DNA of 53,991 bases from IMG/VR virus record IMGVR_UViG_3300045999_000337, positions 1 through 53,991 of that record, one strand, 5' to 3'. The notes below the pieces were generated by a model. The model had not been told where the DNA came from and ran no database searches. It saw only the letters and a list, made by a program, of their open reading frames with translations. This document shows, one piece after another, positions 2,135 through 37,032 of this stretch. Position numbers and translations under genes: made by a program. The stretch comes from a virus (lineage: Duplodnaviria; Caudoviricetes). Position 1 is the first letter of the stretch; each line of letters opens with the position of its first letter.

Positions 2135-5100
2135 ATGGCAGACCCAAAAAAGATTATTGGAGGACTCGGCAAGGCTAGTAAACGCCTGCTGATGACTGAA
2201 GAGGAGAAGCTGGCCCAGAAGTATGCGGCTGGCGCTCAATACGCTGACCCTCTCGCGCCCCCATCCATGCGGATGTCTGAGGCATTGGGCAACGTAGGCG
2301 CAGAAGGCAAGACCCTGAACTTCACAGAGACTGACCGCTCAAGGGTGTTCGGCTCCAACCGTGGTGGTGTGGGGTTCGCTGGCCTCCAGCATTACTCGCT
2401 ACCGCACAAGAAGGCCAACACCGTATGGGGCTTTGGCAACAAGAACACCGCTGACAAGAAGGTCAAGCAGAACGACCCAGAGAAGTCAATCTGGACGACC
2501 TTCGTTGGCTCACCTAACCAACACAAGAGCAACACCGTTGTGCTGAAGGACGCCATCAAGGAGTTCCAAGACGCGGTGAAGGCAGGCAATGTCCCTGCTG
2601 GTCAAATCAAGCTGATGAACGACCGCATCAGGGCGGCAAAGGACGACAAGACTGGCGTACTACTGTTCGACGATGCCTTCGACCTGACTGACCCTAGCGC
2701 ACTAAGCACAGCTAACACTTTCAGCCGCAGGTCTGCCGTTGGTGACGTGCTGTTAGGCGAGGGCGTCAAAGGCCCAATGCGAAGCAAGGCATACAAGTCC
2801 GAGTACGGCAACGAGCCTTGGCGGGACTCAGGCAAGATGGATTCCATTCTTAGGCGCGAGACTGACCCTGACCTAATTGACGCTGGCACATACGATGTTG
2901 GAAATCGCTTTTTTGTGTTGGACGGCAAGATTATTGAGCGCTCCGACTTGAACGAGGCATTCCCCTTGCAGGTGACTGGCAACGACCTTGGCATCAAGTA
3001 CCAACTCGTGCCACCTGAGAAGGCCATGCGTGACTTCTACAAGTTGCGAGAGGGGCGCAAGGACAAGAACAACAGGCCCGCGCCCGTCAACTACTACGAC
3101 CTATCAAGAGCGGAGCCGTCCCAGTTTATTGACGAGGACTTCCTGACGTTCCTCCAGAAGGAGGGCTACAAGAAAGGTGGAGCCGTGGACATCAAAGCGG
3201 CAGACAAGCGCCTAGCGGCGGCAATGAGTCAACGTATGGCAAAGGGTGGCAGTGTGGACATCGACGCCGCTGACGCCCGTTTAGAGGCCGCTATGGCCCA
3301 ACGCATGGGCATGGCCCAAGGTGGCGAGGCTGGCTTCAAAAAGATTGAGTTTATGCAGGCTGGTGGCACACCCAAGGGTAAGGCTGGGGCCGTCAAGGGT
3401 GTGGCGACAGGATTCAAGAAGCTGTTTGCTGACCGTGACGTCATGCCTGCGGCAGAGCGCGAGGCCAACCTCCAGAAGTTCCTTGAGCCAAGCAAGACGC
3501 CCATGCGCCTGTACCACGGCACGACCGCGACCGAAGGTGGCAAAGGGACTGAGGCCATCCGCCGCATCAAGCCTAGCAAGGAAGGCGCACTTGGCTCTGG
3601 TGTCTACATGACGCCCAACACCGCCCACGCAAGCAGTTACACAGGCATCCCCAACGACGACGCGCTGGCAATGATGGCGCAGGGTAATGACTACACCAAG
3701 AAGATGGCTGACCAATTCATGGCAGACCGTGCGTCAGGCACACTGCGCGAAGGGCAGGCAGGCGGCAATATGTTGCCAGTCCACGCCCAGATACGCAACC
3801 CTCTCATCATTGGCAAGTCAGGTAGGAACATTGACCCAGCGGCTGACGCCCTGATGAGTCTTGGCATGGATGAAGCCAGCGCCATTCGATTGGTTGAGAA
3901 GGCGTTTGAGGAGAAGGGCAACATTGGCAAGCAGATTCAAACCAGAGCGCAGGCCCAAGGCTACGACGGCATCATGCAGTACCGTGGTGGCGACCTGTCC
4001 GAGGTGGTGTCCTACAGGCCCAACGCTGTGAAGAGCGCCATCGGAAACCAAGGCACTTACGACGTCAACCTACCCGACCTGAGCAAGGCCGATGGTGGCG
4101 CTATGCGTGCGCCATCCAAAAAGACTGAAGGCTTTCAAGAAGAAAAGCCAAGGGATAAAAGCGTCCTAGAAAAGATGCACCAAGTAATTCGAGATATGCC
4201 AAAAGTTCCGACAAGCCCACTTGGTATGGCTTTGAATGCGGGCTATTCAGGATACAAATATTTTTCAGGGAAAGACCCAGTTGGCGACTTTCAACGAGAA
4301 CTTAATCGCAAAATGAATCGCCCGATTGATACAGGTTCTGCGCCACCAGTCGATGGGTTTGCTGAAGGCGGTAGCGCATTTAAGACCTTGCAATTTAACG
4401 AACCTCAGCGCTTTGACGGTGGTGGCATCGCATCACCTGAAGAGAACAACACCTATCGACCTGAGTCATTCTTTGATTCCAAGCGTTTTAGCGACATCAA
4501 GAAGAACGCCGCTGAGATGTTTGCCGAGAGTAAGCAGACGCTTGCCAGTGACTATGAGCGCCTGAAGTCATCACCACGCGCCCGTGCGCAACTTGCCAAG
4601 ATTGCGGCGGCACAACTTGCGGGTGGTGCGCCAGACCTTGCACACCTTGGCGTTGACCTCGTGCTTGACCCACTCAAGTCAGTGACCGTTGACAAGCTGT
4701 TGACCAAGCCCGCATATCGCTCAGTGCTAGAAGGCCCACCCAAGGCAGGCGAGAAGCAAGAGCGTGTGCCAATGTTTGGCAGTCTGTCCGAGTCCCTGAA
4801 GACCGCTGACGGTTTGCCTATTGGCGGCTCCGAACACATGATTAAACGTGCGCAAGAGGCTGGCCTGATGAGTCAGGGGCGCTTTCACCCACTGACCGAA
4901 ATCCCTGCCGCCATCCTTGGTGGCGTGGGCGCGTCAAAATTAGGTCGAGGCGCTGTTAAAGGCTACGATAAACTTTCAGGCGCAAACTCTGGTAAACTAA
5001 ACCCCTTACAACCAGAGGTTAAGACCGCACCAGCGGGGACACCACAAGGAGCAACGTATGCAACCAAACAAGAAGGCCCGTTCTATCGAGTCAGCCCAAC

Positions 5101-6598
5101 CTCGCTTGACGTCAGTGGAGCAAAGGGTCGCGGACTTCGAGAAGCGGATGAACTACAAGGCCAAGCCCCTATCACAGGAACAGCAGGAGAAGTTGGAAGC
5201 CAAGTTCCGCTCCGCATCTCGGACGAAGAAGTGGCAAGACTGATTGCTGACCCCGCGTCCAATCAGCCCTTACAAATCGCACAGCGCTTTACCAAGGACA
5301 CGCAAGGCACTGACTTTGTTGTCCCTGACATTCCAGAGAGTTCACTCGCCAAGCAGTCTGCCATAGGCCGCGCCCACCAACTTGCTGTTGAGGGTTCGCC
5401 TGAGTACAAGAGCGCGGTGTTCGACGCCTACGCCAAGCAAATGCCTGACTTGCTTGAGCAGGTAGGAGCAAAAGATTACGACGACCTGATGGAGAAGGCG
5501 TATCGCCAACTTGCCAAGGAAACCGACGAACAGTTTCAAAGACTCCCCTACAACTTCTCGTACCACCGCGCAGGCGAAGGCGACTACAAGAGTTCCAAGG
5601 AGATGATGGCTGACGTGCATGGCAACAAGCACCTGTACGTCTTCCAAGGTGGTGACCCCCACGACTTCCTGAACCGCCTTGACAAGGCGTCTGGCCTGAA
5701 CGAGAACGAGAAGTTCCGCGCCGTCCACGACCTACTAGGCCATGCCATCTACGGCAACCAATTTGGCCCCAAGGGCGAAGAGGTGGCATGGGCCATTCAC
5801 CAACAGATGTACAGCCCCCTTGCACGCTTGGCAATGACTGCTGAGACCCGTGGGCAGAACTCGCTCGTGAACTACAGCCCGCTCAACGTGAGCCTGAAGA
5901 CCAACATTGCAAAGCTAGAAGACCTTGAGGTCGAAGCACTGCGACGCAAGGACACCGCATTGGTCAACGAGATTCGCGCCGCCAAGCGGCAAGAGTTTGC
6001 CAACAACTTCCAATTTGCGCCCCAGAAGGCCGTTCTATTGCCACCTGAGTTTGTCGACCCCAAGTTTGCTGGTGGCCTGCCTGACTACTTGAGCGCCGCA
6101 AACCGACCCGCTAAGGGAACCGAAAGCCAATCGGTTTTGACGCACTTCAGCAACGAACCCAATTTGCAGATGCTTGACCCAACGAGGTATGGCACTGGCA
6201 TCAAGGGCGCGGAGGCAGAGCGCTTGCGTGAGTACGCAGGTGGCGTCAAAGACCGCTCCTACGTCTATTTGGGTGAACCTAACACGGTAACCCCTGAGTC
6301 TGGCCTTGGCGTTAACCGCTATCGTGGCGAGTCGCAGAACCTGTACGACATTACCAAAGACCCGTTGTCCTTTCGTGCGTTGGCCCGCGAGTCCAATCGC
6401 ACGCCGTTCACGGCAAAATACAACGCAGGCATTACGCACCCCTTGCAGGAGGCCAACGACTACGAGCGGCTGGTCAAAGAGTATGGTTACGAGGGCATGA
6501 TTAACCCGAACGCAAGCAAGCCAATGGGCATCATGTTCAGACCAACCCCAGTACAGCCCCGCAAGCGCGGTGGGTTGACACAACTTAAGGCGAGATAA
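2135..6598 (+). CDS. Large polyvalent (multi-domain) protein with ADP-ribosyltransferase-like domain(s); probably virion-packaged
   Basis: LYHGT..GVYMT..GNMLPVH..IRNPL..QGYDGI..EVVSYRPNAVKSAIGNQGTYD (H-Y-E ART-PolyVal-like, ~3503-4085); FRAVHDLLGH zincin-like motif (~5714); C-terminal LTHFS..YGYEG ART-like segment. Confidence 0.65.
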   Translation: MADPKKIIGGLGKASKRLLMTEEEKLAQKYAAGAQYADPLAPPSMRMSEALGNVGAEGKTLNFTETDRSRVFGSNRGGVGFAGLQHYSLPHKKANTVWGFGNKNTADKKVKQNDPEKSIWTTFVGSPNQHKSNTVVLKDAIKEFQDAVKAGNVPAGQIKLMNDRIRAAKDDKTGVLLFDDAFDLTDPSALSTANTFSRRSAVGDVLLGEGVKGPMRSKAYKSEYGNEPWRDSGKMDSILRRETDPDLIDAGTYDVGNRFFVLDGKIIERSDLNEAFPLQVTGNDLGIKYQLVPPEKAMRDFYKLREGRKDKNNRPAPVNYYDLSRAEPSQFIDEDFLTFLQKEGYKKGGAVDIKAADKRLAAAMSQRMAKGGSVDIDAADARLEAAMAQRMGMAQGGEAGFKKIEFMQAGGTPKGKAGAVKGVATGFKKLFADRDVMPAAEREANLQKFLEPSKTPMRLYHGTTATEGGKGTEAIRRIKPSKEGALGSGVYMTPNTAHASSYTGIPNDDALAMMAQGNDYTKKMADQFMADRASGTLREGQAGGNMLPVHAQIRNPLIIGKSGRNIDPAADALMSLGMDEASAIRLVEKAFEEKGNIGKQIQTRAQAQGYDGIMQYRGGDLSEVVSYRPNAVKSAIGNQGTYDVNLPDLSKADGGAMRAPSKKTEGFQEEKPRDKSVLEKMHQVIRDMPKVPTSPLGMALNAGYSGYKYFSGKDPVGDFQRELNRKMNRPIDTGSAPPVDGFAEGGSAFKTLQFNEPQRFDGGGIASPEENNTYRPESFFDSKRFSDIKKNAAEMFAESKQTLASDYERLKSSPRARAQLAKIAAAQLAGGAPDLAHLGVDLVLDPLKSVTVDKLLTKPAYRSVLEGPPKAGEKQERVPMFGSLSESLKTADGLPIGGSEHMIKRAQEAGLMSQGRFHPLTEIPAAILGGVGASKLGRGAVKGYDKLSGANSGKLNPLQPEVKTAPAGTPQGATYATKQEGPFYRVSPTSLDVSGAKGRGLREADELQGQAPITGTAGEVGSQVPLRISDEEVARLIADPASNQPLQIAQRFTKDTQGTDFVVPDIPESSLAKQSAIGRAHQLAVEGSPEYKSAVFDAYAKQMPDLLEQVGAKDYDDLMEKAYRQLAKETDEQFQRLPYNFSYHRAGEGDYKSSKEMMADVHGNKHLYVFQGGDPHDFLNRLDKASGLNENEKFRAVHDLLGHAIYGNQFGPKGEEVAWAIHQQMYSPLARLAMTAETRGQNSLVNYSPLNVSLKTNIAKLEDLEVEALRRKDTALVNEIRAAKRQEFANNFQFAPQKAVLLPPEFVDPKFAGGLPDYLSAANRPAKGTESQSVLTHFSNEPNLQMLDPTRYGTGIKGAEAERLREYAGGVKDRSYVYLGEPNTVTPESGLGVNRYRGESQNLYDITKDPLSFRALARESNRTPFTAKYNAGITHPLQEANDYERLVKEYGYEGMINPNASKPMGIMFRPTPVQPRKRGGLTQLKAR

Positions 6599-6600
6599 GC

Positions 6601-9114
6601 ATGGCAACAGAATTTCCAATTGGCCCAGATGAAGAGCGCTTCATTGAGGGCATTCGCATGACTGATGAGGGTGGGGCGGAGGTGGATATGCTCCCCGGCG
6701 AAGACCCCGAAGTCGAGGAGTTGCCCGACGGCTCCGCTGTCGTCAAGCTAGAGGACTTCAAAGGCCCAGCCGAGGACGAGGACTTCTACGCCAACTTGGC
6801 TGAAGAGGTCATCAGCATCACCGAATTGGAAGACTTGGCGACCCGCTACATCGACCTCATTGACAACGACCGCCAAGCACGCAAGAAGCGCGACAAGCAG
6901 TACGAAGAGGGTTTGCGCAGGACGGGCATGGGGGATGATGCGCCGGGCGGCGCTCAGTTCCTCGGAGCCTCCAAGGTTGTGCATCCAATGATGGCTGAGG
7001 CGTGTGTGGACTTTGCATCGCGGGCCATCAAAGAGATGTTCCCACCAGATGGCCCTGCCAAGACCAAGATTTTGGGCGACGTCACGGACGAGAAGACCGA
7101 GACCGCCGAGCGCAAACGCGACTACATGAATTGGCAGTTGACCGAACAGATTGAAGAGTTTAGGGACGAGCAAGAGCAAATGCTGACCCAATTGCCGTTG
7201 GGTGGTTCACAGTTTATGAAGCTGTGGTACGACGACAAGAAGCGCCGACCCTGCGCTGAATTCGTTGCCATTGACAACATCCTGCTCCCCTTCGCCTCCG
7301 CTAACTTCTACACCTCACAACGAGTGACTGAACAGCAGGACATCAGTGAGTGGGAGTTCAAGCAACGCATTGACCGTGGTCTGTACCGCGACATCAATTT
7401 TATCCGCACCACGTCAGAGCCTGAGCAGACCGCCGCTGAGAAGGCCAACGCCAAGATTGAGGGCAAGCAGTTTGAGGATGGTGAAGACGGTTTGCGCCGC
7501 GTGTACCACATCTACACTTGGCTTGACCTTGAAGACGACAACCGCGCTGAAGGCGAGACCGCCCCCTACATCCTGATGATTGATGAACTCGACCGCAAGG
7601 TGTTGGGTTTGTACCGTAATTGGGAAGAGGGCGACGAGACGTTCACCAAACTGGATTGGCTTGTAGAGTTCAAATTCATCCCTTGGCGAGGCGCGTATGC
7701 CATTGGGCTACCTCACCTCATCGGAGGTCTTTCCGCCGCCGCCACGGGGTCATTACGGGCCTTGTTGGACACTGCGCACGTCAACAACTCCCTGACGATG
7801 CTGAAGTTGAAGGGAGCAAAGGTCTCAGGACAGTCTGACCAGATTGAAATCACGCAGGTGACTGAGATTGAAGGCGGTATTGGTGTGGACGACATCCGCA
7901 AGATTGCGATGCCCATGCCCTTTAACCCACCCTCCCCTGTGCTGTACCAATTGCTTGGCTGGCTGACGACTGAAGCCAAAGGTGTGGTGACCACTGCCGA
8001 AGAGAAGATTGCAGACGCCAAGAGCAATATGCCTGTGGGTACGACTCAAGCGCTGATTGAGCAGGGCGCGGTAGTGTTTTCCTCCATCCACGCACGCTTA
8101 CACGACGCCCAACGCCGTGTTTTGCACATCCTTGGACGTATCAATCGTTGGCACTTGGACGAACAACGCAAGGGTGACATCGTTGCTGAGTTGCCCATCA
8201 AGCGCGAGGACTTCCGCCGCAACAGCGACGTGGTTCCAGTGTCTGACCCCCACATCTTCTCTGAGACACAGCGTGTCGCTCAGATGCAGTCAGTCATGCA
8301 GTTGTCTGCGCAGTTCCCAGCGATTTTCGACCAACGTGCGGTGGTGAGTCGTATGCTCAAGCAACTCAAGATTCCGAACGTCAACGAACTGATGCCAAAC
8401 ACTGGCAAGCCAGCAGAGTTGAATGCGGCAGACGAGAACAGCGCAATGGCACTGAACCGACCAGCCTTTGCTTACCCACGTCAAGACCACCTTGCGCACA
8501 TCCAAACGCACTTGACCTTTGCGCTCGACCCAGCGTTAGGCTCAAACCGCCTCATCGCGCCCAAGTTCATCCCGCAGGCACTGGAACACATCAAGCAACA
8601 CATGATGCTCTGGTACACCCAACAGGTGCAGGGCTACGTTCTGGCGGCAGGAGATGTCAAGCTAGGCAAGTACGAAGAGAGCAAGATTGCCAAGGAAATT
8701 GACCGCGCTATCGCTGTGGCGTCTGACCACGTCAGTTTGGACTCCCAACAGGTGTTCCAAGGCGTATTGCCAGCGTTGGAGAAGTTGGGCCAACTTATGC
8801 AACAGTTCAAGCCACCAGCACCTCCAATGGAAGGTGAGGCTCAGGCAGTGTTGCAGGCGTCTATGGCAGAGACACAGCGACGTACAGCGGCAGACCAAGC
8901 CAAGCTGGCATTCGATACCCAAAAACTCCAGATGCAAATGCAAAAGGACGCTATGGACAGGGATGCCGAGATAGCAATGAACGCCGAAAACAACTTGACG
9001 CAAGAGCGTATCAAGACCGCAGAGTTGACCGTGGATGAGGTCAAACTGCGAAAAGAGCAGGAAGAAACTGCAATTCAACTCAACCAAGCAACACAACGCA
9101 ACTTAGGAGCATGA
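6601..9114 (+). CDS. Portal protein
   Basis: 837 aa, follows terL; HPMMAEACVDFASRAIKEMFPPDGP, LPLGGSQFMK and PVGTTQALIEQG motifs of podovirus portals; C-terminal coiled coil. Confidence 0.88.
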   Translation: MATEFPIGPDEERFIEGIRMTDEGGAEVDMLPGEDPEVEELPDGSAVVKLEDFKGPAEDEDFYANLAEEVISITELEDLATRYIDLIDNDRQARKKRDKQYEEGLRRTGMGDDAPGGAQFLGASKVVHPMMAEACVDFASRAIKEMFPPDGPAKTKILGDVTDEKTETAERKRDYMNWQLTEQIEEFRDEQEQMLTQLPLGGSQFMKLWYDDKKRRPCAEFVAIDNILLPFASANFYTSQRVTEQQDISEWEFKQRIDRGLYRDINFIRTTSEPEQTAAEKANAKIEGKQFEDGEDGLRRVYHIYTWLDLEDDNRAEGETAPYILMIDELDRKVLGLYRNWEEGDETFTKLDWLVEFKFIPWRGAYAIGLPHLIGGLSAAATGSLRALLDTAHVNNSLTMLKLKGAKVSGQSDQIEITQVTEIEGGIGVDDIRKIAMPMPFNPPSPVLYQLLGWLTTEAKGVVTTAEEKIADAKSNMPVGTTQALIEQGAVVFSSIHARLHDAQRRVLHILGRINRWHLDEQRKGDIVAELPIKREDFRRNSDVVPVSDPHIFSETQRVAQMQSVMQLSAQFPAIFDQRAVVSRMLKQLKIPNVNELMPNTGKPAELNAADENSAMALNRPAFAYPRQDHLAHIQTHLTFALDPALGSNRLIAPKFIPQALEHIKQHMMLWYTQQVQGYVLAAGDVKLGKYEESKIAKEIDRAIAVASDHVSLDSQQVFQGVLPALEKLGQLMQQFKPPAPPMEGEAQAVLQASMAETQRRTAADQAKLAFDTQKLQMQMQKDAMDRDAEIAMNAENNLTQERIKTAELTVDEVKLRKEQEETAIQLNQATQRNLGA

Positions 9115-9477: not shown

Positions 9478-9889
9478 CACGGTAGCGGGTTATGCCGCTG
9501 ATTTAGAGGAAGCGTTTCCTCTTGTAGACCCCGGTGCGATTCCCCTTGGTGCGCGTGTATTGGTTCAATTGCGCAAAGCCAAAAAACGGATGACTCAATC
9601 TGGGATTATTTTGCCTGAAGAGACTCGCGACACCGAACGGGCGCAAAACCCCGTTGCCAAAGTGATTGCGCTTGGCCCATTAGCGTTCAAAAAGCGCGAC
9701 ACGATGGAGCCTTGGGTCGAAGGCATTTGGTGCGAACTAGGAGACTTCTTGCGCGTACCCAAATGGACTGGCGACCGTTGGCAAGTTCCGCATGGAGAAG
9801 ACGAAAACGTCGAATTCATGGTGTTGAACGACCACGAAGTGATTGCAAAAATCACAGGTAATCCACTTGAAGTGAGGGCATTCGTATGA
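9467..9889 (+). CDS. groES: GroES/Cpn10-like co-chaperonin
   Basis: PLGARVLV..TQSGIILPE..KVIALGP..GD....LNDHEVIAKI matches the Cpn10 pattern; alternative start 9461. Confidence 0.85.
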   Translation: MTDSTVAGYAADLEEAFPLVDPGAIPLGARVLVQLRKAKKRMTQSGIILPEETRDTERAQNPVAKVIALGPLAFKKRDTMEPWVEGIWCELGDFLRVPKWTGDRWQVPHGEDENVEFMVLNDHEVIAKITGNPLEVRAFV

Positions 9890-10860
9890 GTACCGAAAAT
9901 CAAGCAGTAGAACAAGAAGTAATCGTCATTCAGGAAGAAAAAGACGGCTCTGCAACCATCGAGTTGCCAGATAGCATCCCCTCCCCTGAAGCGCAAGCCG
10001 AAGACGACTCCGATGAAGCTGATGAACGCGCCCGACAGCGCGAAATGGTCACTGGCGGTGCTGTAGACGCAGACGCGGAGGCTCTTCGTGAGCAAAAGCG
10101 TCAGAAACGACGCTCCCGCAAGGAGTATCACAAGCAGGTTGCGACCGAAAAAGACGTCAAATTGACCCTTTTGGAGCGTCAGAACCAACAATTGCTTGAA
10201 CGTCTCTCTGTTTTGGAGCGCAAGTCGCACGGAAGTGACCTTGCACGCCTTGACAAAGCAATTCAAGACCAAGACAACCGCATTTTGTTCGCAAAACAGA
10301 AGATTGCTGAGGCAACACGCACTGGCAACGGTGAATTGCTGACTTCTGCGCAAGAAATGTGGTTCGAGGCACGTCGTCAAGCTGAGGCTTTGGCAAATCT
10401 GAAGAAGCGTTCTGTTGCACCGCAAAATCCGCGCACGATTCAGGCTCCAGACCCACAACTCCAGCGCCATGCCAACAATTGGATGGCAAACAACCCTTGG
10501 TACGACCCTAACGGTAAAGACCCTGACTCACGCCGCGCCCTGAACGAAGACGCCATCCTTGCAGAAGAGGGTTACGACCCAAAAACTGCCGAGTATTGGG
10601 AAGAACTTGACAGACGCTTGCAAAGAGTAGTACCTCACCGTTATACTGAAGATGCAAACGAGAAGCCACGCTCTAGACCGCGAAGTGCAGTGACGAGTTC
10701 AGGCCGCGAATTTGCATCGAATAATGGCAGAGGTAATTCATTTACCTTGTCTCCTGACCAAGTCAGGGCTATGAAAGATGCAGGTATGTGGGATGACGCT
10801 GAGAAACGAGCGAAGATGATTCGACGCTACGCCTTAGAAGCACGCAACAATAACGGTTAA
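9886..10860 (+). CDS. Probable capsid scaffolding protein
   Basis: Acidic N-terminus, long coiled coil, W..NPWY motif, short C-terminal helix; lies between portal and capsid. Confidence 0.65.
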   Translation: MSTENQAVEQEVIVIQEEKDGSATIELPDSIPSPEAQAEDDSDEADERARQREMVTGGAVDADAEALREQKRQKRRSRKEYHKQVATEKDVKLTLLERQNQQLLERLSVLERKSHGSDLARLDKAIQDQDNRILFAKQKIAEATRTGNGELLTSAQEMWFEARRQAEALANLKKRSVAPQNPRTIQAPDPQLQRHANNWMANNPWYDPNGKDPDSRRALNEDAILAEEGYDPKTAEYWEELDRRLQRVVPHRYTEDANEKPRSRPRSAVTSSGREFASNNGRGNSFTLSPDQVRAMKDAGMWDDAEKRAKMIRRYALEARNNNG

Positions 10861-10871: not shown

Positions 10872-11411
10872 ATGGATTCTCGTTTAAAGAAAAATTTGAA
10901 TGCTGGAGACCGCGAAAATCGCGGCGTTCGCGACACGATTCGCGAGGCTCCAGAGGACAAAATGGCATCGTCTGATGAACGTACACAAATGTGGAAAGAC
11001 GAGTGGACACAAAGTGCATTGCCCGCTGTTCCTGATATGCAGGGATGGCACGTTTGCTGGTTATCGACAACTAACAGTTACGACAGCATAGATAAACGGA
11101 TTCGACTTGGGTACGTTCCCGTGAAAGCGGATGAGTTACCTCAAATGCGAAATAACCGTGTAAAAGCTGGAGAACATGAAGGTTATATCTCGTGCAATGA
11201 GATGTTGCTTTACAAGATTCCTATGGACTTGTACCAAAAAGTGATGGCTCATTTTCACCATGAAGCACCGCTTGAAGAGGCGAATAAAATCAAACTTCAA
11301 GCAGAGCAGAACTTGGCGCGTGATAGTCGGGGCAGAAGCCTCGGTCAGATTGAAGGCGATGGGCTTAATGACATTGACAAACCGATTCCTGCGCCGCATT
11401 TTGCGGGGTAG
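10872..11411 (+). CDS. Hypothetical head-module protein
   Basis: AAGGAG SD; position upstream of the capsid genes. Confidence 0.7.
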   Translation: MDSRLKKNLNAGDRENRGVRDTIREAPEDKMASSDERTQMWKDEWTQSALPAVPDMQGWHVCWLSTTNSYDSIDKRIRLGYVPVKADELPQMRNNRVKAGEHEGYISCNEMLLYKIPMDLYQKVMAHFHHEAPLEEANKIKLQAEQNLARDSRGRSLGQIEGDGLNDIDKPIPAPHFAG

Positions 11412-12023: not shown

Positions 12024-12938
12024 ATGGCCGCACCAATGCGCAGTACGGACTTTAGAAGTATTGTTGAACCAATCCTCAACGAATGCTTCGATGGAGTCTA
12101 TGACCAACGTACCGATGAATGGTCACGAGTTTTCCGTGAGCAAGAAGGTATTCCACGCAACTACCACGAAGAACCAGTCCTTTATGGATTTGGAGCCGCG
12201 CCTCAACTGCCTGACGGAACTCCTGTTTCGTATCAGCAGGGTGGTGTTCTCTTCTTGCAACGCTATGTGTACAACGTGTTTGGCTTGGCCTTCGCGTTGA
12301 CCAAAGTGTTGGTTGAAGACGGTGACCACATCCGCATCGGTCAGGTGTATGCACGTCACTTGGCTCAGTCTTTGATTGAGACCAAAGAGACTTTGTCTGC
12401 CAACGTGCTGAATCGTGCTTTCAACAGCGCGTTCCCCGGCGGTGACGGCGTTCAATTGAACTCCGCCTCTCACCCCATCGTGAACGGTACTTTCAGCAAC
12501 TTGCTGACCACCGCCGCTAACCTGAGCCAAACATCGCTTGAGCAGATGTTGATTCAGATTCGCCAAGCTGTGGACAACAACGGTAAGAAGATTCGTTTGG
12601 TTCCCCGCCAATTGGTGGTGGCCCCCGGCAACATCTTCCAAGCCGAAGTTCTGTTGAAATCTGTTCTGCGTGCAGGTACAGGCAACAACGACGTCAACCC
12701 AATCAAGTCTATTGGCTTGCTTGACGAAGGCGCGGCTGTTCTGTCTCGTTTGACTTCTCCTACCGCTTGGTGGGTGCAGACAGATGCTCCAGAAGGCATG
12801 AAGTTGTTGATGCGTCGTAAGCTGGAAAAGACTATGGAAGGCGATTTTGAAACCGACTCCATGCGCTACAAGGCTACCGAGCGTTACCAAGTGGGCTTCA
12901 CTGACCCACGCGCCCTTTACGGCACGCCCGGCGTCTAA
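12024..12938 (+). CDS. Major capsid protein (HK97 fold, Mu gpT-like family)
   Basis: ANVLNRAF..GGDG..L.SASHP, PRQLVV.P, GDFETDSMRYKATERY..GFTDPR..YG.PG; strong SD; terminator follows. Confidence 0.9.
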   Translation: MAAPMRSTDFRSIVEPILNECFDGVYDQRTDEWSRVFREQEGIPRNYHEEPVLYGFGAAPQLPDGTPVSYQQGGVLFLQRYVYNVFGLAFALTKVLVEDGDHIRIGQVYARHLAQSLIETKETLSANVLNRAFNSAFPGGDGVQLNSASHPIVNGTFSNLLTTAANLSQTSLEQMLIQIRQAVDNNGKKIRLVPRQLVVAPGNIFQAEVLLKSVLRAGTGNNDVNPIKSIGLLDEGAAVLSRLTSPTAWWVQTDAPEGMKLLMRRKLEKTMEGDFETDSMRYKATERYQVGFTDPRALYGTPGV

Positions 12939-14279: not shown

Positions 14280-15452
14280 ATGGGACAATTCAAACCAATG
14301 GTCAAAATGATGACCACTGAGCCTACAGTTGAGTTAAAACTCAAAAAAGGCGGTCACGTCAACATGAAAAAAGGTGGCAAGGCTGAAGCTGGTCACAAGA
14401 AGATGGCGATGGGTGGTGGTGCTATGGACATGATGTCTGGCACTCCAGCCCTCGTTGGTCGTCCTGCTGTTAACGCTCCTGTTCGCGCCCCCATGAAGCC
14501 TTCTATGTCCTCACGTCGCAAGGCGATGATGGCTAAGAAACCTGCCGCTCCTATGGCTCCCCCAATGAAAGAAGGTGGCGAGTCCAAAAAGACGCACATG
14601 GCTGAGATGTCGAAGATGAAGGGTCTTGAGAAAGAACTGAAGTCTCACGAGTCCAAGCCTGCCAGCAAGGGTCACAAAGGTCTGAAGACTGGCGGTGTTG
14701 CTTTGGGCAACGCTGGTGGCTACAAGAAGGGCGGCGACGTCAAGATGGCTAAAGGTGGCGTGGCTGGTAACGGCATCATCAACACCGAAAAGCAAGGCGG
14801 CAAATACCGCGATACCCTGATGCACACCGCTGAGTACACTGGCAAGTCCAGTGGCAAAACTGGTGATGTGAAGATGGGTAACGGCGGCGGCTACAAGACT
14901 GGTGGCGTTGCCCTTGGCAATGCTGGCGGCTTCAAAGCTGGAGGCAAAACCTCAAAAAAAGCCTACGCGGCGGGGGGTACTGTTAACTCAGGTCGTCCCG
15001 TCGCGATGCCCCAAGGCGCTAAAAAGCCTTCGGCTCCTGTAAGCATCAATCAATTGTCTGGAACCTTCAAAAAGGGTGGCAAAGTCACTCCCGCTGAGGG
15101 TCGCTTGCAAAAGAACTTTGCGGCTGAGAACAAGACTGCTATGAAGCAGGCCAAGGCTCAATCCAACGAGATTTACAGCAAGTACGGCAACATGAAGATG
15201 AAGGGCGGTGGCGCTACTTCTGACAAAGAGATGGATATGTCCAAAGGTGCGTATGACGCTCACTATGCCAACGAAAAGGCAGAGAACGAGGCAATGCGCA
15301 ACATGGTTTTGGGCGTTCCTAAAAAACTCATGGAAGGCGTCAAGGGGCTGTTTGGCTCCAAGGCTCCTCAAGGTCAGGGCGCTGTGACAAAGACTGAGAA
15401 GTCAATCACAGTATCGCCAGCAGGAAAGAAACGCGGCGGACGCGCTTGTTGA
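14280..15452 (+). CDS. Lys/Gly/Met-rich low-complexity protein with about 13 x-x-x-GG motifs; putative internal core protein
   Basis: LKKGG, MKKGG, MAMGG, MKEGG, LKTGG, YKKGG, MAKGG, YKTGG, FKAGG, YAAGG, FKKGG, MKGGG, KKRGG. Confidence 0.7.
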   Translation: MGQFKPMVKMMTTEPTVELKLKKGGHVNMKKGGKAEAGHKKMAMGGGAMDMMSGTPALVGRPAVNAPVRAPMKPSMSSRRKAMMAKKPAAPMAPPMKEGGESKKTHMAEMSKMKGLEKELKSHESKPASKGHKGLKTGGVALGNAGGYKKGGDVKMAKGGVAGNGIINTEKQGGKYRDTLMHTAEYTGKSSGKTGDVKMGNGGGYKTGGVALGNAGGFKAGGKTSKKAYAAGGTVNSGRPVAMPQGAKKPSAPVSINQLSGTFKKGGKVTPAEGRLQKNFAAENKTAMKQAKAQSNEIYSKYGNMKMKGGGATSDKEMDMSKGAYDAHYANEKAENEAMRNMVLGVPKKLMEGVKGLFGSKAPQGQGAVTKTEKSITVSPAGKKRGGRAC

Positions 15453-16820: not shown

Positions 16821-17075
16821 ATGGCAAAAAAAAATCCATCTTTGGCTGTAGGGCGAGGTGAAAAACTTTCGACAAAACAAGGCGCAGGTCTTACTCAAAA
16901 AGGTCGCGACAAGTACAATCGAGAGACTGGAAGCAATTTAAAGGCTCCACAACCTAAAGGCGGCGCTCGAAAAGACTCTTTTTGCGCACGCATGAGTGGT
17001 GTTGTGGAACATTCAAAAGGGGACGCACCACGCGCCAAGGCATCGCTAAAGCGGTGGAACTGCCCCGGCTGGTAA
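16821..17075 (+). CDS. Small basic protein (DUF6321-like)
   Basis: GAGLTQKGR.KYNRETGSNLKAP..RKDSFCARM..SLKRWNC; family name recalled, not verified. Confidence 0.6.
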   Translation: MAKKNPSLAVGRGEKLSTKQGAGLTQKGRDKYNRETGSNLKAPQPKGGARKDSFCARMSGVVEHSKGDAPRAKASLKRWNCPGW

Positions 17076-33043: not shown

Positions 33044-36007
33044 ATGGCTATTCTAAAAAAACGCACATCAAGCAGACAACTCCCAAGCGCAAGGGGGCTT
33101 GACCGCGCACCGCTGGATAGCATCATTCGCGGTGTAGGTAACGCGCCAGCACTCACTGATAAAGGCGACTTGTCAATCACGTCTGCTGGTGGCGTTGGTG
33201 GCTCCAATGCTGTTAAATCCGCAGGCTCTGGAAGCCGCCCCTTCACCTCTGCGTTTACCAACCCAGCGACCAACAGGCCATCAATTACTACAAAGACATC
33301 TTCAATACCCAAGACAGCCTTGGCTCCTAAGACGCCTTTGACAAGCACAACAACAACCACCACAAAACCAACAATCACAAACAAGACGACGACTACACCT
33401 ACAACTAAAACGACGCCTACATCGATTGTAAAAAAACCAACAGTTACGCCAACAAAAACAAACACAAACTCCACTACCAACAAGGTGGTGAACGCGCTCA
33501 CGGGCGCGGCGATTGGTGCTGGAACAAAACTAATCATTGACAAGATTACTGGCAAGCCAACTGTTGTCAAAACTGGCTCTACAGGCTCAAACACCTCTGG
33601 CGGCACAAAGCCTCCCGTTGGTGGGACTCCAAAGCCTCCTACTGGTGGGACTCCCAAACCACCTACTGGCGGAACCGCAAAACCACCTACTAGTGGCGCA
33701 ACACCTCCTGCTGGTGGGACAAAACCGCCTGTTGCCCCTAAGTCTGGCTCAGGCAGTCCAACAAGCGTTATAAAAAATCCTGCAACAGGTTTGCCTACTG
33801 GAACTGGTTTCGGTGATGAAAAAGAAGAGTTCACAACTGACTCTTTAGGTAACACTTACAAAACCATGCCTGACGGAACATCCGTCTTGTATCGCGCCGC
33901 CGAAGTCCCTGAATATGATTTCACAACCGACTCTTTAGGCAACGTCTACAAAACAATGCCTGATGGAACTTCAGAACTTTATCGTGCCGCTGATGTTGCT
34001 GAAGACGAATACACCACCGATTCTTTAGGCAACACCTACAAGACCATGCCTGATGGCACGTCTGTGCTTTATCGTGCCGCAGAGGTTGAGGATGATTTTC
34101 CCACTACAAATGTTGGCGACGACAGCACAACAAACGAGTCTCAATATTTTCAAGATGAAGACGGCAATATTTACATGATGAATTCTGACGGTGGGTATGA
34201 CCTATACCGCGCCGCAGAAGTAGATGAAGATTTTTCTGAACAGCCAGTTGTCGAAGAAGAACAATATTACGACGATGGTGAAGGCAACACTTACATCTTG
34301 AATGACAGTGGCGAATACGAGTTGTATCGCGCCGCTGAAGTGCCAGAAGACATTCTTGAAGAAGACTACGACCTCTTTAACAGAGGTAATGAAGACTACA
34401 CGCCTGTCGAAGACGACAACTACTATGACTACGGCAGTAGTTATGACGACCCTTACTACGATTACGGCAGTAGTTACGACGACACCTATAACGACGACGA
34501 CACTTACTATGACTACGGTGACGACTACCCAGACATAAAACGCGGAGGCTTGATTACTATGATGAAAAAAGGCGGAGTGCCACGTTTTGAAGACGGCGGA
34601 TATTCTGAAACCGACGAAGAAGTTCAACCTTGGCAAAACGTCAATTACAACTACGGTGAAGAAGACGACCCAACAATGACGGGTTACACGTTGACTGGAA
34701 ATCGCAACCCAGTTGGAAACACTTACGAAAGAAATGTTGCCTCGGATGAGGGGGATGACTTCACGCCCGTCCCCGGCCGTCAATACTTTGATGATGGCTC
34801 CTACATTGATACGTTCGATGACGGTAGCACGATGACGTATGACTACGACGGAAACCTCGTTGATACATCAGAGGCTTACCAAACCACAAGGGACGATGAG
34901 GGTAACTACATTGTCACTGACGGTTTTGGAAACATGACCGTTTACGACCAAAGCGGAAACTTAATTCCTTTGGGTGGTGGTCGCGTGAATGCTGGCCCAA
35001 TTACTAACGTAGGTAGCGGAACACGACCGCCAACTCCTAGCGCTCCTCGCAATCCTGATGCTCCACCAGCGCCAACAAATATTGGCTCTGACCTTCTAGA
35101 CACAATCACTGGCGCACTTGGTACAACCGCAGGTGCGGCGGGTGCAGGCGCTTTGATTGCCTCTTTGCTTGGCAGTGATTTTGGTGGTGGTACTGGAACT
35201 CAAAACCAAGGATTGGATATGTCTCAAGTGGGCGTCATCAACCCACGCACGACTGACTTTGGAATTGGCCCAACTCGGTTTGTGGGTTACGAAGACTACG
35301 GCACAAGTGATGGTGACTACACGCCGAATGCTGAGTTGCTGAAGAACCTAAACGCGCCGGGGTACAACCCCGTGAACGAAGGCGACTACGGCTACGAAGA
35401 AGTTGAAGAAGAAGTTCCACAAATGGCTTCTGGTGGCTTGTCCTCAATGGCTACCCCCGTGGCTTCGTACTACACCTTTGGTCAACCTGCTGACATCTTG
35501 GCAAACTTGGGAATGCGTTCGCAACCCCCAATGAACCCACCTGAGATGATGCCCCAGATTGGTCAACAGCAACCTCCCCAGCAAGCACAACAGCAGGGTC
35601 TGCCACAGCAACAACCTCCTCAAATGGCGCAACAAGTGCCACAAGGGATGCCACAGCAGGGCATGATGCCCCAACAGCAGGGTATGCCCCCTCCAATGCG
35701 CAAGGGTGGTTTGCCACACGCCTCAAACGTGCCAATGGTCGAAGGTCGCATGGACTTCCGCAAAGGCGCGGCTGTGCATGGTGCAGGCGATGGACAGTCG
35801 GATGACATCCCAGCTATGCTGGCGGATGGCGAGTATGTGATTGACGCTGAGACCGTGGCTCAGATTGGCAACGGCTCAACTAAGGCAGGCGCAAAGGCTT
35901 TGGACAAGTTCCGAGAGAGCATCCGCGCCCACAAGCGTTCTGCCCCCGTCAACAAGATTCCGCCCAAAACAAAGGCACTGACCTCATACCTTAAAGGAGC
36001 GAAATAA
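33044..36007 (+). CDS. Putative internal virion/ejection protein, repeat-rich, with a C-terminal G.GDGQSDDIPAML.DGEYV domain
   Basis: Thr/Lys/Pro N-terminus, GGTPKPPT repeats, Asp/Tyr-rich repeats, x-x-x-GG motifs, Gln/Pro tract. Confidence 0.65.
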   Translation: MAILKKRTSSRQLPSARGLDRAPLDSIIRGVGNAPALTDKGDLSITSAGGVGGSNAVKSAGSGSRPFTSAFTNPATNRPSITTKTSSIPKTALAPKTPLTSTTTTTTKPTITNKTTTTPTTKTTPTSIVKKPTVTPTKTNTNSTTNKVVNALTGAAIGAGTKLIIDKITGKPTVVKTGSTGSNTSGGTKPPVGGTPKPPTGGTPKPPTGGTAKPPTSGATPPAGGTKPPVAPKSGSGSPTSVIKNPATGLPTGTGFGDEKEEFTTDSLGNTYKTMPDGTSVLYRAAEVPEYDFTTDSLGNVYKTMPDGTSELYRAADVAEDEYTTDSLGNTYKTMPDGTSVLYRAAEVEDDFPTTNVGDDSTTNESQYFQDEDGNIYMMNSDGGYDLYRAAEVDEDFSEQPVVEEEQYYDDGEGNTYILNDSGEYELYRAAEVPEDILEEDYDLFNRGNEDYTPVEDDNYYDYGSSYDDPYYDYGSSYDDTYNDDDTYYDYGDDYPDIKRGGLITMMKKGGVPRFEDGGYSETDEEVQPWQNVNYNYGEEDDPTMTGYTLTGNRNPVGNTYERNVASDEGDDFTPVPGRQYFDDGSYIDTFDDGSTMTYDYDGNLVDTSEAYQTTRDDEGNYIVTDGFGNMTVYDQSGNLIPLGGGRVNAGPITNVGSGTRPPTPSAPRNPDAPPAPTNIGSDLLDTITGALGTTAGAAGAGALIASLLGSDFGGGTGTQNQGLDMSQVGVINPRTTDFGIGPTRFVGYEDYGTSDGDYTPNAELLKNLNAPGYNPVNEGDYGYEEVEEEVPQMASGGLSSMATPVASYYTFGQPADILANLGMRSQPPMNPPEMMPQIGQQQPPQQAQQQGLPQQQPPQMAQQVPQGMPQQGMMPQQQGMPPPMRKGGLPHASNVPMVEGRMDFRKGAAVHGAGDGQSDDIPAMLADGEYVIDAETVAQIGNGSTKAGAKALDKFRESIRAHKRSAPVNKIPPKTKALTSYLKGAK
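33598..33730 (+). repeat. Short coding repeats GGT(P/A)KPP(T/V)
   Basis: GGTKPPVGGTPKPPTGGTPKPPTGGTAKPPTSG..GGTKPP. Confidence 0.75.
33827..34342 (+). repeat. ~30-aa coding repeats: three near-identical and two degenerate copies
   Basis: (F/Y)TTDSLGN(T/V)YKTMPDGTS.LYRAA(E/D)V x3, then QDEDGNIY..LYRAAEV and DDGEGNTY..LYRAAEV. Confidence 0.85.
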
Positions 36008-37032
36008 TGGCTGGCTTATTTCAGGGTGACCCACTACCCTCGATTACCAAGACGACGGAAGCCCAACAGACGGCTCCAGAGTTTTACACGAATTACCTGC
36101 AAGACATCGCCAACTTAGGTCAGAACGCTGTCCAACAGGGCGGCATCGCTGGCTTCAGTCCTTTGCAACAGCAAGCCTTCCAGATGGCTCCAGACGTCGC
36201 GTTTGCTGGCGCTGGGTCTTTGGGTGCGGCTTCTCAATTGCTAGGCGAGGCGGGCGCTACAACTGTTCCTGACGTCATTGCTGACTACATGAACCCCTAT
36301 CAATCCGCTGTGGTGGATGAGATGGGCCGTCTGACTCAGCGCAACGTCCAAGAAAACATCCTGCCAAACCTTGGCGCGGCGGCTGTTGGCTCTGGTCAAT
36401 TTGGCTCACGTCGTCAACAGCAGGTCACTGGCAACGCTTTGCGCGACATCCAAGCTGACTTGATGGGCAAACAAATGCAAGCGCTCCAACAGGGCTACAC
36501 CACCGCTGGAACGCAGGCTCAGGCAGACTTGTCTCGCGCCTTGTCCGCTGGGCAGGGCTTTACCAATTTAGGTCAAGAGCAACAGCAACTAGGTACAGCG
36601 GGTCTCAAGACCATGTCCGACTTTGGCGCTCAACAGCAGGCTCAAGGTCAGAAGTTGCTTGACTACCCAATGGCTCAGACCCAACAGTTTGCCAAGCTGA
36701 TGCAGGGTTATCAAATTCCTATGGGTACAACCACGCAGGCGACTGGCTCCGAGGGTTATTCCAACAGCCCGTTGTCGCAAATTGCTGGTTTAGGTTCCTT
36801 GGTTGCGTCGCTCTTTCCAAATTCTGCGGCATCCGAAGCGGCAATCGCAGAAGCAAATGCCAGAAAAGCCTATTACGAAAGAGGCGGTAAACCTATTGCC
36901 AAAGGCGGCGTAATTCGCAAGGCGCATGGAGGCGGTGTTCGCCTTGCTGATGGCGGAATGGCTCCTTCTGGCGCAGAATATCACGATGGCAACGGAAATT
37001 TTTACGATGCCGATGGCTACTTAGTGGGGTAA
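36007..37032 (+). CDS. Putative DNA ejection/pilot protein
   Basis: Gln/Gly/Ala-rich; IAGFSPLQQQAF, YMNPYQ..V and GQFGSRR motifs typical of podovirus ejection proteins. Confidence 0.65.
   Translation: MAGLFQGDPLPSITKTTEAQQTAPEFYTNYLQDIANLGQNAVQQGGIAGFSPLQQQAFQMAPDVAFAGAGSLGAASQLLGEAGATTVPDVIADYMNPYQSAVVDEMGRLTQRNVQENILPNLGAAAVGSGQFGSRRQQQVTGNALRDIQADLMGKQMQALQQGYTTAGTQAQADLSRALSAGQGFTNLGQEQQQLGTAGLKTMSDFGAQQQAQGQKLLDYPMAQTQQFAKLMQGYQIPMGTTTQATGSEGYSNSPLSQIAGLGSLVASLFPNSAASEAAIAEANARKAYYERGGKPIAKGGVIRKAHGGGVRLADGGMAPSGAEYHDGNGNFYDADGYLVG

Follow-up and report, generated by a model that had tools for sequence, protein, structure and literature searches.

A shared Gly-Gly motif in five late proteins

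The late genes of the window, by which we mean the whole 53,991-nt stretch of DNA analysed here, encode head, cargo, small basic and ejection-type proteins (Table 1). Five of them, namely the polyvalent cargo protein, the 390-aa protein, p102, p987 and p341, share the seven-residue motif Φ-[A/K]-x-G-G-x-[V/A], in which Φ is mostly Met, Tyr or Phe.

Table 1 Features of the window and the evidence by which they were assigned
Feature	Position (nt)	Strand	Basis or remark
1487-aa polyvalent cargo protein	2135..6598	+	between terL and portal
Portal protein, motif-free	6601..9114	+	phrog_1216
324-aa acidic coiled-coil-like protein, probably scaffold	9886..10860	+	motif-like MVTGGAV at nt 10045
179-aa conserved head-module protein, unknown fold	10872..11411	+	alignment
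Major capsid protein, HK97 fold, very conserved, motif-free	12024..12938	+	Pfam Phage_capsid_4
390-aa basic protein, 12 strict motif copies	14280..15452	+	motif count
p102, 102-aa two-domain basic virion protein	16278..16586	+	MADGGKV at nt 16404
84-aa stand-alone DUF6321 protein	16821..17075	+	Pfam DUF6321, E 1.5e-16
p987, 987-aa acidic ejection / tape-measure-like protein	33044..36007	+	motifs, PHROG, tblastn
p341, 341-aa ejection protein	36007..37032	+	phrog_4287 'DNA ejection protein', E 2.2e-5

The initial annotation had listed about 30 copies of the motif in these five proteins, and all instances lie where it had placed them, from YKKGGAV at nt 3167 to LADGG at nt 36943. We counted a strict form, [MFYLI][AK]xGG, and a loose form, [MFYLI]xxGG. 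The loose form occurs 7, 13, 1, 6 and 3 times in the polyvalent, 390-aa, p102, p987 and p341 proteins, which gives the 30 copies claimed, and the strict form 4, 12, 1, 3 and 2 times (22 in total) against 0.56, 0.49, 0.04, 0.28 and 0.24 expected from whole-protein shuffles (2000 each). Shuffling within 15-aa blocks yielded 1.96 copies on average for the five proteins pooled and never more than 8 in 2000 shuffles, so that the proposed enrichment over a composition-matched background is borne out (22 observed vs about 2 expected). In the other 49 ORFs (13,066 aa), 4 strict matches were found vs 3.08 expected, all with Ile at the first place and in Gly-rich fibre or adaptor proteins; [MFY][AK]xGG is confined to the five proteins, with 17 copies there and none in the other 49 ORFs. 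Pattern counts found no copies in the terL, portal, capsid and helicase of the window, in agreement with the initial annotation.

That the motif results from low-complexity sequence rich in Gly, Lys and Ala, or from a repeated DNA element, could be argued from the Gly content of the five proteins (9.8-16.7%) and from their selection after the motif had been noticed, which makes related genomes the independent test. This reading is refuted by the shuffle, reversal, codon and genome controls, and we give it practically no weight. Beyond the global and local shuffles, the reversed pattern has only 4 copies in the window (77 vs 654 forward copies in the 390-aa protein family), and Val two places after GG is strongly enriched, though the pattern did not condition on Val. 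The motif is found in basic (pI 10.2) and acidic (pI 4.3-4.9) proteins alike, and independent genomes repeat the same family-specific pattern, as the initial annotation had proposed to check. Gly is encoded by GGT, GGC, GGA and GGG, and several codons are used at each other place, indicating that the constraint acts on the protein and not on a DNA repeat. These data confirm that the motif is a genuine signal, under selection at the protein level.

Several other explanations were rejected. The varying codons rule out a DNA repeat or recombination signal, and internal start codons at the motif Met are ruled out because Tyr and Phe are as common as Met. The ribosome-binding site of the portal gene does not account for GG, since the tail motif lies ~30 nt upstream of the stop codon, and a DNA-binding repeat is unlikely, since acidic proteins carry the motif too. 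The presence of a GroES gene in the phage raised the idea that the motif mimics the GroES mobile loop, but the loop of the phage's own GroES reads MTQSGIILP, with hydrophobic residues in a different register.

The 390-aa protein family

The 390-aa protein (16.7% Gly, 15.9% Lys, 7.9% Met; pI 10.2) is mostly predicted to be disordered (AF2 mean pLDDT 52.8), with motif-rich stretches below 50. It matched no Pfam or PHROG family, and a protein atlas returned unnamed viral clusters only; more than 5139 metagenomic homologues were found. All 66 unique homologues examined keep 5-14 motif copies, together 642 vs 23.9 expected. These homologues are 46-97% identical, and the capsid protein is 93-100% identical. 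The N-terminus of the family is conserved, and its C-terminus consists of KKRGG plus 2-4 residues and a nearly invariant Cys (C390). Lineage-specific insertions carry new motif copies, and copies form tandem clusters 6-25 aa apart. In two clades of the 390-aa protein, the 390-aa, p102-type and polyvalent motif proteins occur together at 12/12 and 13/13 full-length loci, and this motif-bearing set is absent at 16/16 loci of a third clade, within which no clear co-occurrence correlation was seen.

Motif placement in polyvalent cargo proteins

The 1487-aa protein is a multi-domain protein encoded in the head module and containing an ART-PolyVal effector domain (aa 455-641; Pfam, E 8.9e-11), as polyvalent proteins do. 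Its motif copies start at nt 3167, 3236, 3311, 3353, 4085, 4358, 4412 and 6560, the last being RKRGG in the C-terminal tail. Motif clusters coincide with the ends of BLAST modules at aa ~352-405, 655-663 and 759-802, and relatives share these modules in different orders. As Pfam found no family in the polyvalent proteins of five of seven relatives, domain limits were taken from BLAST. The large cargo proteins between terminase and portal are mutually non-homologous and carry the motif at module boundaries and tails. Among 86 large proteins at this position, a motif is found no more than 15 aa from 166 of 1007 interior homology end-points; random placement predicts 75.6, and none of 1000 randomisations came up to the observed number. 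In 53% of the sites in these large proteins the second residue after GG is Val, ~10-fold over background, and Met, Tyr and Phe are strongly preferred over Leu and Ile at the first place. In the gene just upstream of the portal gene, GG falls within the last 30 residues of 44 of 67 distinct C-termini on unrelated bodies, and many of the proteins end with the motif plus 3-12 residues.

Neither a MuF domain, which serves as a head or portal anchor, nor an MPTase domain was matched by Pfam in the window protein or the seven relatives. Polyvalent proteins, as described by Iyer et al. 2017 (PMC5512222), are likewise large multi-domain head-associated proteins with ART-PolyVal and modules reshuffled between relatives. 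Their processing was proposed there, with zincin-like MPTase domains as the enzymes and MuF named among the domains, whereas neither was detected here. The words 'linker' and 'glycine' are absent from the main text of PMC5512222, indicating that the junction motif is not described there.

A junction rule in small basic virion proteins

In p102, MADGGKV lies exactly at the junction of two PHROG families, phrog_16759 (aa 1-43) and phrog_17747 (aa 41-101). DUF6321, which forms the 84-aa protein of the window on its own, is in most relatives fused behind a motif. Of 94 unique proteins with an internal DUF6321, 78 have a strict motif at most 16 aa upstream, 15 have GG only and 1 has none, so that the motif in either form is present at 93/94 junctions; the junctions of the 'LYxNI' domain (n=34) gave 30 strict, 1 GG-only and 3 without. 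At these small-domain junctions the motif is essentially the whole linker. Across relatives, the same small domains are found free or fused in many orders with one conserved junction site, as in a polyprotein. Where DUF6321 is N-terminal, 16 of 19 proteins begin with MA or MS, with leaders such as MAKKN and MAKN, and one begins with MAKGG, suggesting that a leader with no sequence ahead of it has usually lost the GG. The first small domain also exists by itself, as a 60-aa form that retains the motif at its C-terminus. Pro directly follows GG at 25 of the 78 strict DUF6321 junctions, which argues that these sites are not cut immediately behind GG. Cyanophage DUF6321 has no preceding motif, except VKKGG in S-RIP2.

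Ejection proteins and tape measure proteins

The motifs of p987 include a cluster starting at nt 34535, 34562 and 34586 and further copies at nt 35423 and 35696. A tape-measure-type module follows at about nt 35747-35878, with PHROG tape-measure families on aa 902-945; aa 885-945 carry Φ-A-x-GG beside G-x-G...D-x-[IV]PA-x-L-x-x-GE-[FY]-V, by which p987 shares the C-terminal module of siphophage tape measures. Tape measure proteins were among the 21 records matched by tblastn, and the module matched the Douge tape measure (8zdo) weakly (E 0.068). In p341, a C-terminal motif cluster starts at nt 36874, 36895, 36919 and 36943. Across 80 related ejection-gene neighbourhoods, p987 homologues (n=76) hold 174 motifs vs 24.3 expected and p341 homologues (n=80), with a conserved tail, 103 vs 17.0. 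The flanking virion proteins hold 2 vs 8.1, 0 vs 9.7 and 2 vs 11.9 expected, a depletion that is only suggestive because the homologues are mutually related.

The motif also flanks a conserved module (aa ~730-785) in the lambda tape measure gpH, as FATGGFT at 733 and YATGGYV at 778. No Pfam family covers this module, Tape_meas_lam_C ending at aa 701. The same arrangement was found in an Arthrobacter phage tape measure and in gp066c of Caulobacter phage RW, which ends with the loose motif YMDGGRV; bases 12400-62362 of the 62362-base RW genome contain no 390-aa, p102 or DUF6321 genes. In cultured phages that are more distantly related, the strict form is absent from the 15,920 aa of CRP-901 and occurs 6 times in the 15,286 aa of HTVC023P. 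According to excerpts of PMC12617516, gpH is shortened at its C-terminus by ~14 kDa, the piece being removed 'from the glycine-rich region', with the cleavage site and enzyme stated there as unknown; this stretch adjoins FATGG. T5 pb2 is cut after R1127 (PMC10038345, in excerpt), where its sequence reads R|AEGGMM. Going by these excerpts, the motif or AEGG lies at or near the processing region in gpH (to gpH*) and pb2 (to pb2C). Both differ from the present phage in having one or two copies in one tail protein, rather than dozens across podophage head-internal cargo, and T5 has Arg and not a hydrophobic residue at the first place.

Head-module proteins and the search for a protease

Portal homologues (n=63) have 1 strict motif in 44,806 aa and capsid homologues (n=79) none in 24,016 aa. 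Together with the enrichment in cargo and ejection families, this supports the view that the motif marks proteins expected inside the head and ejected, and that it is absent from shell, portal and tail. At the place of MVTGGAV, about 24 of 63 unique homologues of the 324-aa protein have [MLI]AxGGx[VI]D.

In line with the initial annotation, which recognised no canonical prohead protease gene, Pfam and PHROGs found none on the late ORFs, where Pfam detected no peptidase of any kind either. Where the capsid protein matches 'protease' families of PHROGs, these are fused families and the match is limited to their capsid half. Searches with PF00770 and PF02902 gave 0 clan CE candidates in the 53,991-base genome, which is estimated to be 99% complete. 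The 179-aa protein, in whose alignment H60, C108, H129 and H130 are invariant, is the sole unexplained enzyme candidate in the head module. As a hidden protease it was rejected for want of a protease-like fold match: its AF2 model (mean pLDDT 62.8) had a best Foldseek E of 0.29 against PDB and matched only uncharacterised proteins in BFVD, while a PDB profile search, Pfam on each member and the protein atlas gave nothing. PDB sequence searches with the capsid, portal, polyvalent and 190-aa proteins yielded nothing useful. The head genes that motif-rich and motif-poor clades have in common are the same, with no clade-specific enzyme that tracks the motif.

Comparison with known systems

Literature searches, mostly at the level of search results, returned no description of the motif, which has the look of a so far undescribed type of processing or loading signal. 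In adenovirus, (M/I/L)XGG|X sites are cut by the adenovirus protease (clan CE), and the ASFV polyprotein has GG|X sites; such sites recur in a number of internal or core proteins, among them basic proteins associated with DNA. The present motif shares with them a Gly-Gly core, an upstream hydrophobic residue and its spread across internal proteins. However, its hydrophobic residue stands three rather than two places before GG in the logos, the second residue after GG is conserved as Val or Ala, GG is often followed by Pro, and the virus is an HK97-fold tailed phage encoding no recognisable clan CE protease. The adenovirus analogy drawn in the initial annotation therefore fails, and judged by its register and the lack of a clan CE protease the system is not of adenovirus type.

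In T4, a single N-terminal leader is cut at L/I-x-E by the known prohead protease gp21, which processes internal proteins and Alt, a packaged and injected ADP-ribosyltransferase. As with the T4 capsid targeting sequence, a short signal is shared here by an ADP-ribosyltransferase-type cargo protein and basic internal proteins, but it is internal, multi-copy or C-terminal, has another sequence and comes without a detected prohead protease. Encapsulin cargo, otherwise unrelated, carries a short Gly-containing C-terminal peptide for its HK97-fold shell. Such placement recurs here in the polyvalent tails and the ends of the 390-aa protein and p341, whereas most copies are internal, the sequence differs and binding is putative, by analogy. 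Viral polyproteins likewise have conserved junction sites, but they have a dedicated protease, which was not recognised here.

Possible functions of the motif

We consider the best reading, though a tentative one, to be that the motif marks the sites at which a putative protease would process bead-on-a-string precursors; a docking tag is its close rival. The motif punctuates the proteins that the podophage packs inside its head and ejects, forming the junctions between independently mobile domains as well as many N-proximal and C-terminal tails. Fused precursors, that is, polyvalent cargo, chains of small basic domains and ejection proteins, would be cut at motif junctions into separate mature internal proteins, and the 390-aa protein, with about 12 sites, may be core- or scaffold-like and end up as a set of small basic peptides. 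The enzyme might come from the host, or be a phage protein not recognised as a protease. We infer that the motif is cut and, by analogy with T5, that the cut would fall before the A/K residue rather than after GG.

Processing is favoured by the junction rule (93/94 for DUF6321, 31/34 for LYxNI) with domains free or fused, by the loss of GG from most N-terminal DUF6321 leaders and by the homology end-points near motifs, with which the window's own module ends agree. The copies kept throughout the 390-aa family in stretches predicted to be unstructured, the restriction to certain families (p987 and p341 enriched, flanking virion proteins low) and the tape-measure precedent, as far as the excerpts on T5 pb2 and lambda gpH go, are also consistent with it. 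Against it stand the absence of a protease match on the late ORFs, of a clan CE match, of a protease-like fold in the 179-aa protein and of a clade-specific enzyme going with the motif. Tandem clusters would not be needed by a cleavage system, residues are conserved both before and after GG, the first residue of the T5 site is Arg, lambda gpH has no mapped site, and no cleavage product has been observed for any protein of the phage group. The motif at the end of the stand-alone 60-aa domain and of many other proteins fits a tag better.

Such a tag is possible, although we hold it at low confidence. It would be a multivalent docking or loading signal, a short linear motif recruiting cargo into the procapsid or a pre-ejection core, with the proteins staying intact; the 390-aa protein is the candidate hub, its clients carry 1-7 copies, and they would bind either a conserved surface on the capsid, portal or scaffold or the motif itself. 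Copy number in the hub family resembles valency, with insertions adding copies and tandem clusters. Tails carry the motif in the polyvalent C-termini, the 390-aa and p341 families, RW gp066c and the stand-alone small domain. Hydrophobic residues are conserved on both sides of the GG turn, the motif set is co-present in two clades and absent from the third, and searches with Pfam, PHROGs and clan CE profiles gave no protease. However, no partner was identified, a tag is not needed at practically every domain junction, most N-terminal DUF6321 proteins have lost GG from the equivalent leader, and the co-occurrence holds at clade level only.

It is less probable that the motif is structural punctuation only, a preferred linker or helix-stop hinge with helix-favouring A/K before GG, which would let chains of small domains fold independently, unfold and thread through the portal channel. 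This reading requires no missing protease or receptor and suits a motif that makes up nearly the whole linker in regions predicted to be flexible; [A/K] ahead of GG, with a beta-branched residue behind, would fit a helix C-cap pattern. A generic linker, however, would not be confined to internal and ejected proteins, and the multi-domain fibres, adaptor and portal make no such use of the motif. Nor would a hinge be kept at protein tails or stay constant while its surroundings diverge to 46% identity, and the preference for Met, Tyr and Phe over Leu and Ile is left unaccounted for.

Returning to processing, a broader proposal, which we regard as unlikely, is that Φ|[A/K]-x-G-G is an unrecognised Gly-Gly code by which tailed phages mature everything leaving via the portal or tail channel, with a putative host or novel protease. 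The code would have spread here to modular cargo families whose domains are swapped as cassettes, and it would explain the T5 pb2 cut and lambda gpH cleavage, predicted near F733/A734. The initial annotation had offered a shared virion-interior motif as a processing or targeting system; the signal is real and common to internal and ejected proteins, while the role assigned to it stands at the strengths given above.

Significance

If a processing or loading code is true, it would provide a sequence rule for the packed and injected proteins of a large group of uncultured freshwater phages, for which the more than 5000 homologues of the 390-aa protein alone give a scale. It would also show how cargo is built from interchangeable modules and open a way to load phage heads with foreign proteins. 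Moreover, it makes a testable prediction for the old question of where and how lambda gpH is cut.

Genome and late gene order

The window comprises the whole virus record, with an estimated completeness of 99%. By capsid protein, its nearest GenBank record is uncultured phage MW202545.1 (88% identical), followed by Caulobacter phages RW, GB2A, RLK and KcrB (77%) and by HTVC023P-type pelagiphages and roseophages CRP-901 and CRP-902 (~40%). The GroES-like gene inside the head module is also kept in RW, CRP-901 and HTVC023P. The β-ketoacyl-synthase-like gene lies amid tail and virion genes, which is unusual for a phage structural module, and its counterpart position in MW202545.1 carries the annotation 3-oxoacyl-ACP synthase. 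In addition, the Pfam match of the glycosyltransferase gene suggests hypermodified DNA bases.

Late genes, in order, and two further genes of the window
Order	Feature	Coordinates	Strand	Remarks
1	Small and large terminase		+	
2	1487-aa polyvalent protein	2135-6598	+	ART-PolyVal domain (Pfam, E 8.9e-11)
3	Portal		+	
4	GroES-like co-chaperonin	9461-9889	+	
5	324-aa acidic protein		+	Coiled-coil-like
6	Conserved 179-aa and 190-aa proteins	10872-11411 (179-aa)	+	
7	Capsid protein	12024-12938	+	HK97 fold
8	Fibre-like protein		+	Gly-rich
9	390-aa basic protein	14280-15452	+	Without known family
10	Small basic proteins, 102 aa (p102) and 84 aa (DUF6321)	16278-16586 (p102); 16821-17075 (DUF6321)	+	
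11	SU10-type adaptors, fibres, lysis genes		+	
12	Row of ejection-type proteins, including the 987-aa (p987) and 341-aa (p341) proteins	33044-36007 (p987); 36007-37032 (p341)	+	p987, tape-measure-like C-terminal module; p341, match to 'DNA ejection protein'
	β-Ketoacyl-synthase-like gene	29650-30765	+	Pfam Ketoacyl-synt_C, E 5.6e-16
	TET-associated glycosyltransferase	49385-50260	+	Pfam TAGT, E 2.8e-42

Enrichment of a GG motif in five late proteins

All instances of the motif named in the initial annotation were recovered in place. The strict form, [MFYLI][AK]xGG, occurs 22 times in the polyvalent protein, the 390-aa protein, p102, p987 and p341, against 1.6 copies expected from whole-protein shuffles and 1.96 (at most 8 in 2000) from 15-aa block shuffles, which bears out the proposed enrichment over a composition-matched background; the reversed pattern occurs four times. 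The remaining 49 ORFs hold 4 strict matches (3.08 expected), all Ile-first and located in Gly-rich fibres or an adaptor, and the [MFY]-first form is found 17 times in the five proteins and nowhere in those 49 ORFs. Since codons at the motif vary, the constraint acts on the protein. The motif-bearing proteins include both basic (pI 10.2) and acidic ones (pI 4.3-4.9).

Our literature searches, judged partly from search results rather than full texts, found no published description of the motif. The polyvalent-protein paper proposes processing by MPTase domains, and neither 'linker' nor 'glycine' appears in its main text (PMC5512222); the available part of the cyanophage A4 study describes a pre-ejectosome without this motif (PMC12002296).

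Conservation of the motif in related phages

With the capsid protein as bait, 80 loci were fetched in which the capsid is 93-100% identical and the 390-aa protein, encoded two genes downstream, only 46-97%, an extreme contrast in evolutionary rate. Nevertheless, all 66 unique full-length 390-aa homologues carry 5-14 strict motifs each, 642 in total versus 23.9 expected, extending the enrichment to related genomes. Counted at every GG, the third place before it is Y, M, L or F at 70% of sites, the second place before it K or A at 70%, and the second place after it V or A at 49%. The N-terminus and a few other blocks of this family are conserved, and a C-terminal Cys shortly behind the final KKRGG is nearly invariant. 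AlphaFold2 gave a mean pLDDT of 52.8, with helices only at aa 76-84, 103-120, 271-306 and 324-357 and every motif-rich stretch below 50 and without secondary structure. Metagenomic homologues number more than 5139, and none is named. Cys or Cys-Trp ends behind the final GG motif recur, as GG-x-x-C in the 390-aa family (window 15441-15449) and as SCW, ACW or NCPGW in small proteins of two loci (L043 and L060), and may form a disulfide or metal site.

Over these 80 loci, strict motifs per 1000 aa number 27.2 in the 390-aa family, 7.9 in the p102 family and 2.9 in polyvalent-protein homologues, against 0.02 in the portal (1 in 44,806 aa) and none in the capsid (24,016 aa), in agreement with the reported absence from the latter two. 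Motifs (2-7 per ORF) also occur in many large ORFs directly upstream of portal that show no BLAST relation to the window's polyvalent protein. In 51 unique ORFs of this position, the first motif residue is M (45%), Y (24%) or F (18%), and Val, at a place outside the search pattern's conditions, is second after GG in 53%, an about 10-fold enrichment. Another 80 loci were collected around the 341-aa gene; there, homologues of p987 and p341 hold 174 and 103 motifs versus 24.3 and 17.0 expected. Three neighbouring virion proteins hold 2, 0 and 2 versus 8.1, 9.7 and 11.9; as the homologues are related, this depletion is no more than suggestive, and a shuffle test of the window by itself showed none.

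Two more sets of 80 loci, the first sharing 13 loci with the capsid-bait set, were surveyed by clade. Where flanks sufficed, a motif-dense protein follows the capsid gene in 52/52 window-like, 45/45 MW202545-like and 7/46 RW-like loci, and at least two motifs lie upstream of portal in 35/37, 31/32 and 6/32, respectively. Full-length loci have the 390-aa gene in 12/12, 13/13 and 0/16 cases; this gene, p102 and DUF6321 are missing from the fetched part of RW. CRP-901 has no motif in 15,920 aa and HTVC023P six in 15,286 aa. The GroES, scaffold-like, 179-aa, 190-aa, capsid and portal genes are common to all three clades, and thus no clade-specific enzyme goes with the motif. The 179-aa protein, conserved with invariant H60, C108, H129 and H130, gave no fold or family match; its gene occupies the place where a prohead protease gene often sits.

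Position of the motif at module junctions and tails

BLAST homology of the window's polyvalent protein to its relatives is interrupted at aa ~352-405, 655-663 and 759-802, exactly where motifs cluster (345-412, 651 and 742-765), and its three modules are differently ordered in relatives. In 86 polyvalent-position proteins, a motif was found no more than 15 aa away from 166 of the 1007 interior homology ends; 75.6 were expected, and none of 1000 randomisations attained the observed count. Five small domains (p102 N-domain, 'LYxNI', DUF6321, p102 C-domain and a further one) combine in many orders among close relatives, with the motif at every junction. Within 16 aa upstream of internal DUF6321 (94 unique proteins), the strict motif was found in 78, a GG-only variant in 15 and neither in one; the corresponding counts for LYxNI junctions (n=34) are 30, 1 and 3. 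Where DUF6321 is N-terminal (n=19), 16 proteins start with MA or MS (leaders such as MAKKN or MAKN) and one with MAKGG. In 25 of the 78 strict DUF6321 junctions, the residue directly behind GG is Pro.

Tails are marked similarly. GG lies within the last 30 residues in 44 of 67 distinct C-termini of the portal-adjoining gene, one clade having basic-GGL tails and another KKGG with a further conserved tail motif behind it, and proteins of the p341 family terminate in a conserved cluster of motifs. In the MW202545-like clade (L087-L132), many otherwise unrelated polyvalent proteins, encoded directly upstream of portal, share a second short motif, approximately D-T-M-R-L-A-L-T then KKAK, at the extreme C-terminus and, in some of them, near the N-terminus. 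The N-terminal 250 aa of p987 are rich in Thr and Pro, and aa ~255-430 (window 33800-34300) comprise ~37-aa tandem repeats patterned as 'TTDSLGNTYKTMPDGTS.LYRAAEV', after which come acidic repeats rich in Asp and Tyr.

Link to tape measure proteins

Over its C-terminal part, p987 is similar to tape-measure PHROGs and, by tblastn, to 21 records including tape measure proteins of Arthrobacter, Nitrincola and Caulobacter phages. In RW gp066c, Arthrobacter phage EvePickles and lambda gpH, whose sequences we read, the motif borders a conserved stretch of the form 'G-x-G...D-x-IPA-x-L-x-x-GE-[FY]-V'; in gpH it appears as FATGGFT at 733 and YATGGYV at 778, beyond the end of Pfam coverage at residue 701. 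According to the Ur-lambda study, gpH loses a C-terminal piece of ~14 kDa at its glycine-rich region, residues ~690-817 are unresolved, and cleavage site and catalyst are unknown (PMC12617516). A study of the lambda tail resolves gpH at 818-849 only (PMC10721106), and this segment binds the plug that gpI forms in the tail tip. Loose motifs also end gpH (L233, aa 842-853, MRDGGLF...) and RW gp066c (L002, YMDGGRV). T5 pb2 is reported to be cut after R1127 (PMC10038345), and the T5 record reads R|AEGGMM there, the sole GG within the last 700 residues. For mycobacteriophage Douge, the structure resolves only the last 42 tape measure residues (PMC13033339), leaving its two module copies unseen.

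Possible roles of the motif

We ranked the explanations by the features each accounts for and by the missing protease or receptor. Proteolytic processing leads, tentatively. It would account for a site at practically every junction, the loss of GG where nothing precedes a domain, trimmed tails and the confinement to internal proteins, and a many-site core protein would be akin to degraded scaffolds. Its weakness is the missing protease: as the initial annotation had noted for prohead proteases, none was recognised among the late ORFs by Pfam or PHROGs. This reading has precedents in T5 and lambda. Docking to a receptor, a possible and close second, explains the valency, tandem clusters and tails, but leaves the junction rule unexplained, and no receptor was found as its other half. 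A pure hinge accounts for the junctions but not for the tails, family specificity or M/Y/F preference, and is unlikely; chance is highly improbable. The remainder falls to something we have not thought of.

The suggested analogy with adenovirus protease found no support, as the window has no clan CE match, nor does a cut directly after GG fit well. If processing occurs, the scissile bond would instead lie before the A/K residue, because Pro often follows GG and because the MA/MS leaders of DUF6321-first proteins match the fused forms' 'K-x-G-G' stubs in length. This position would be the same as that of the T5 pb2 cut.
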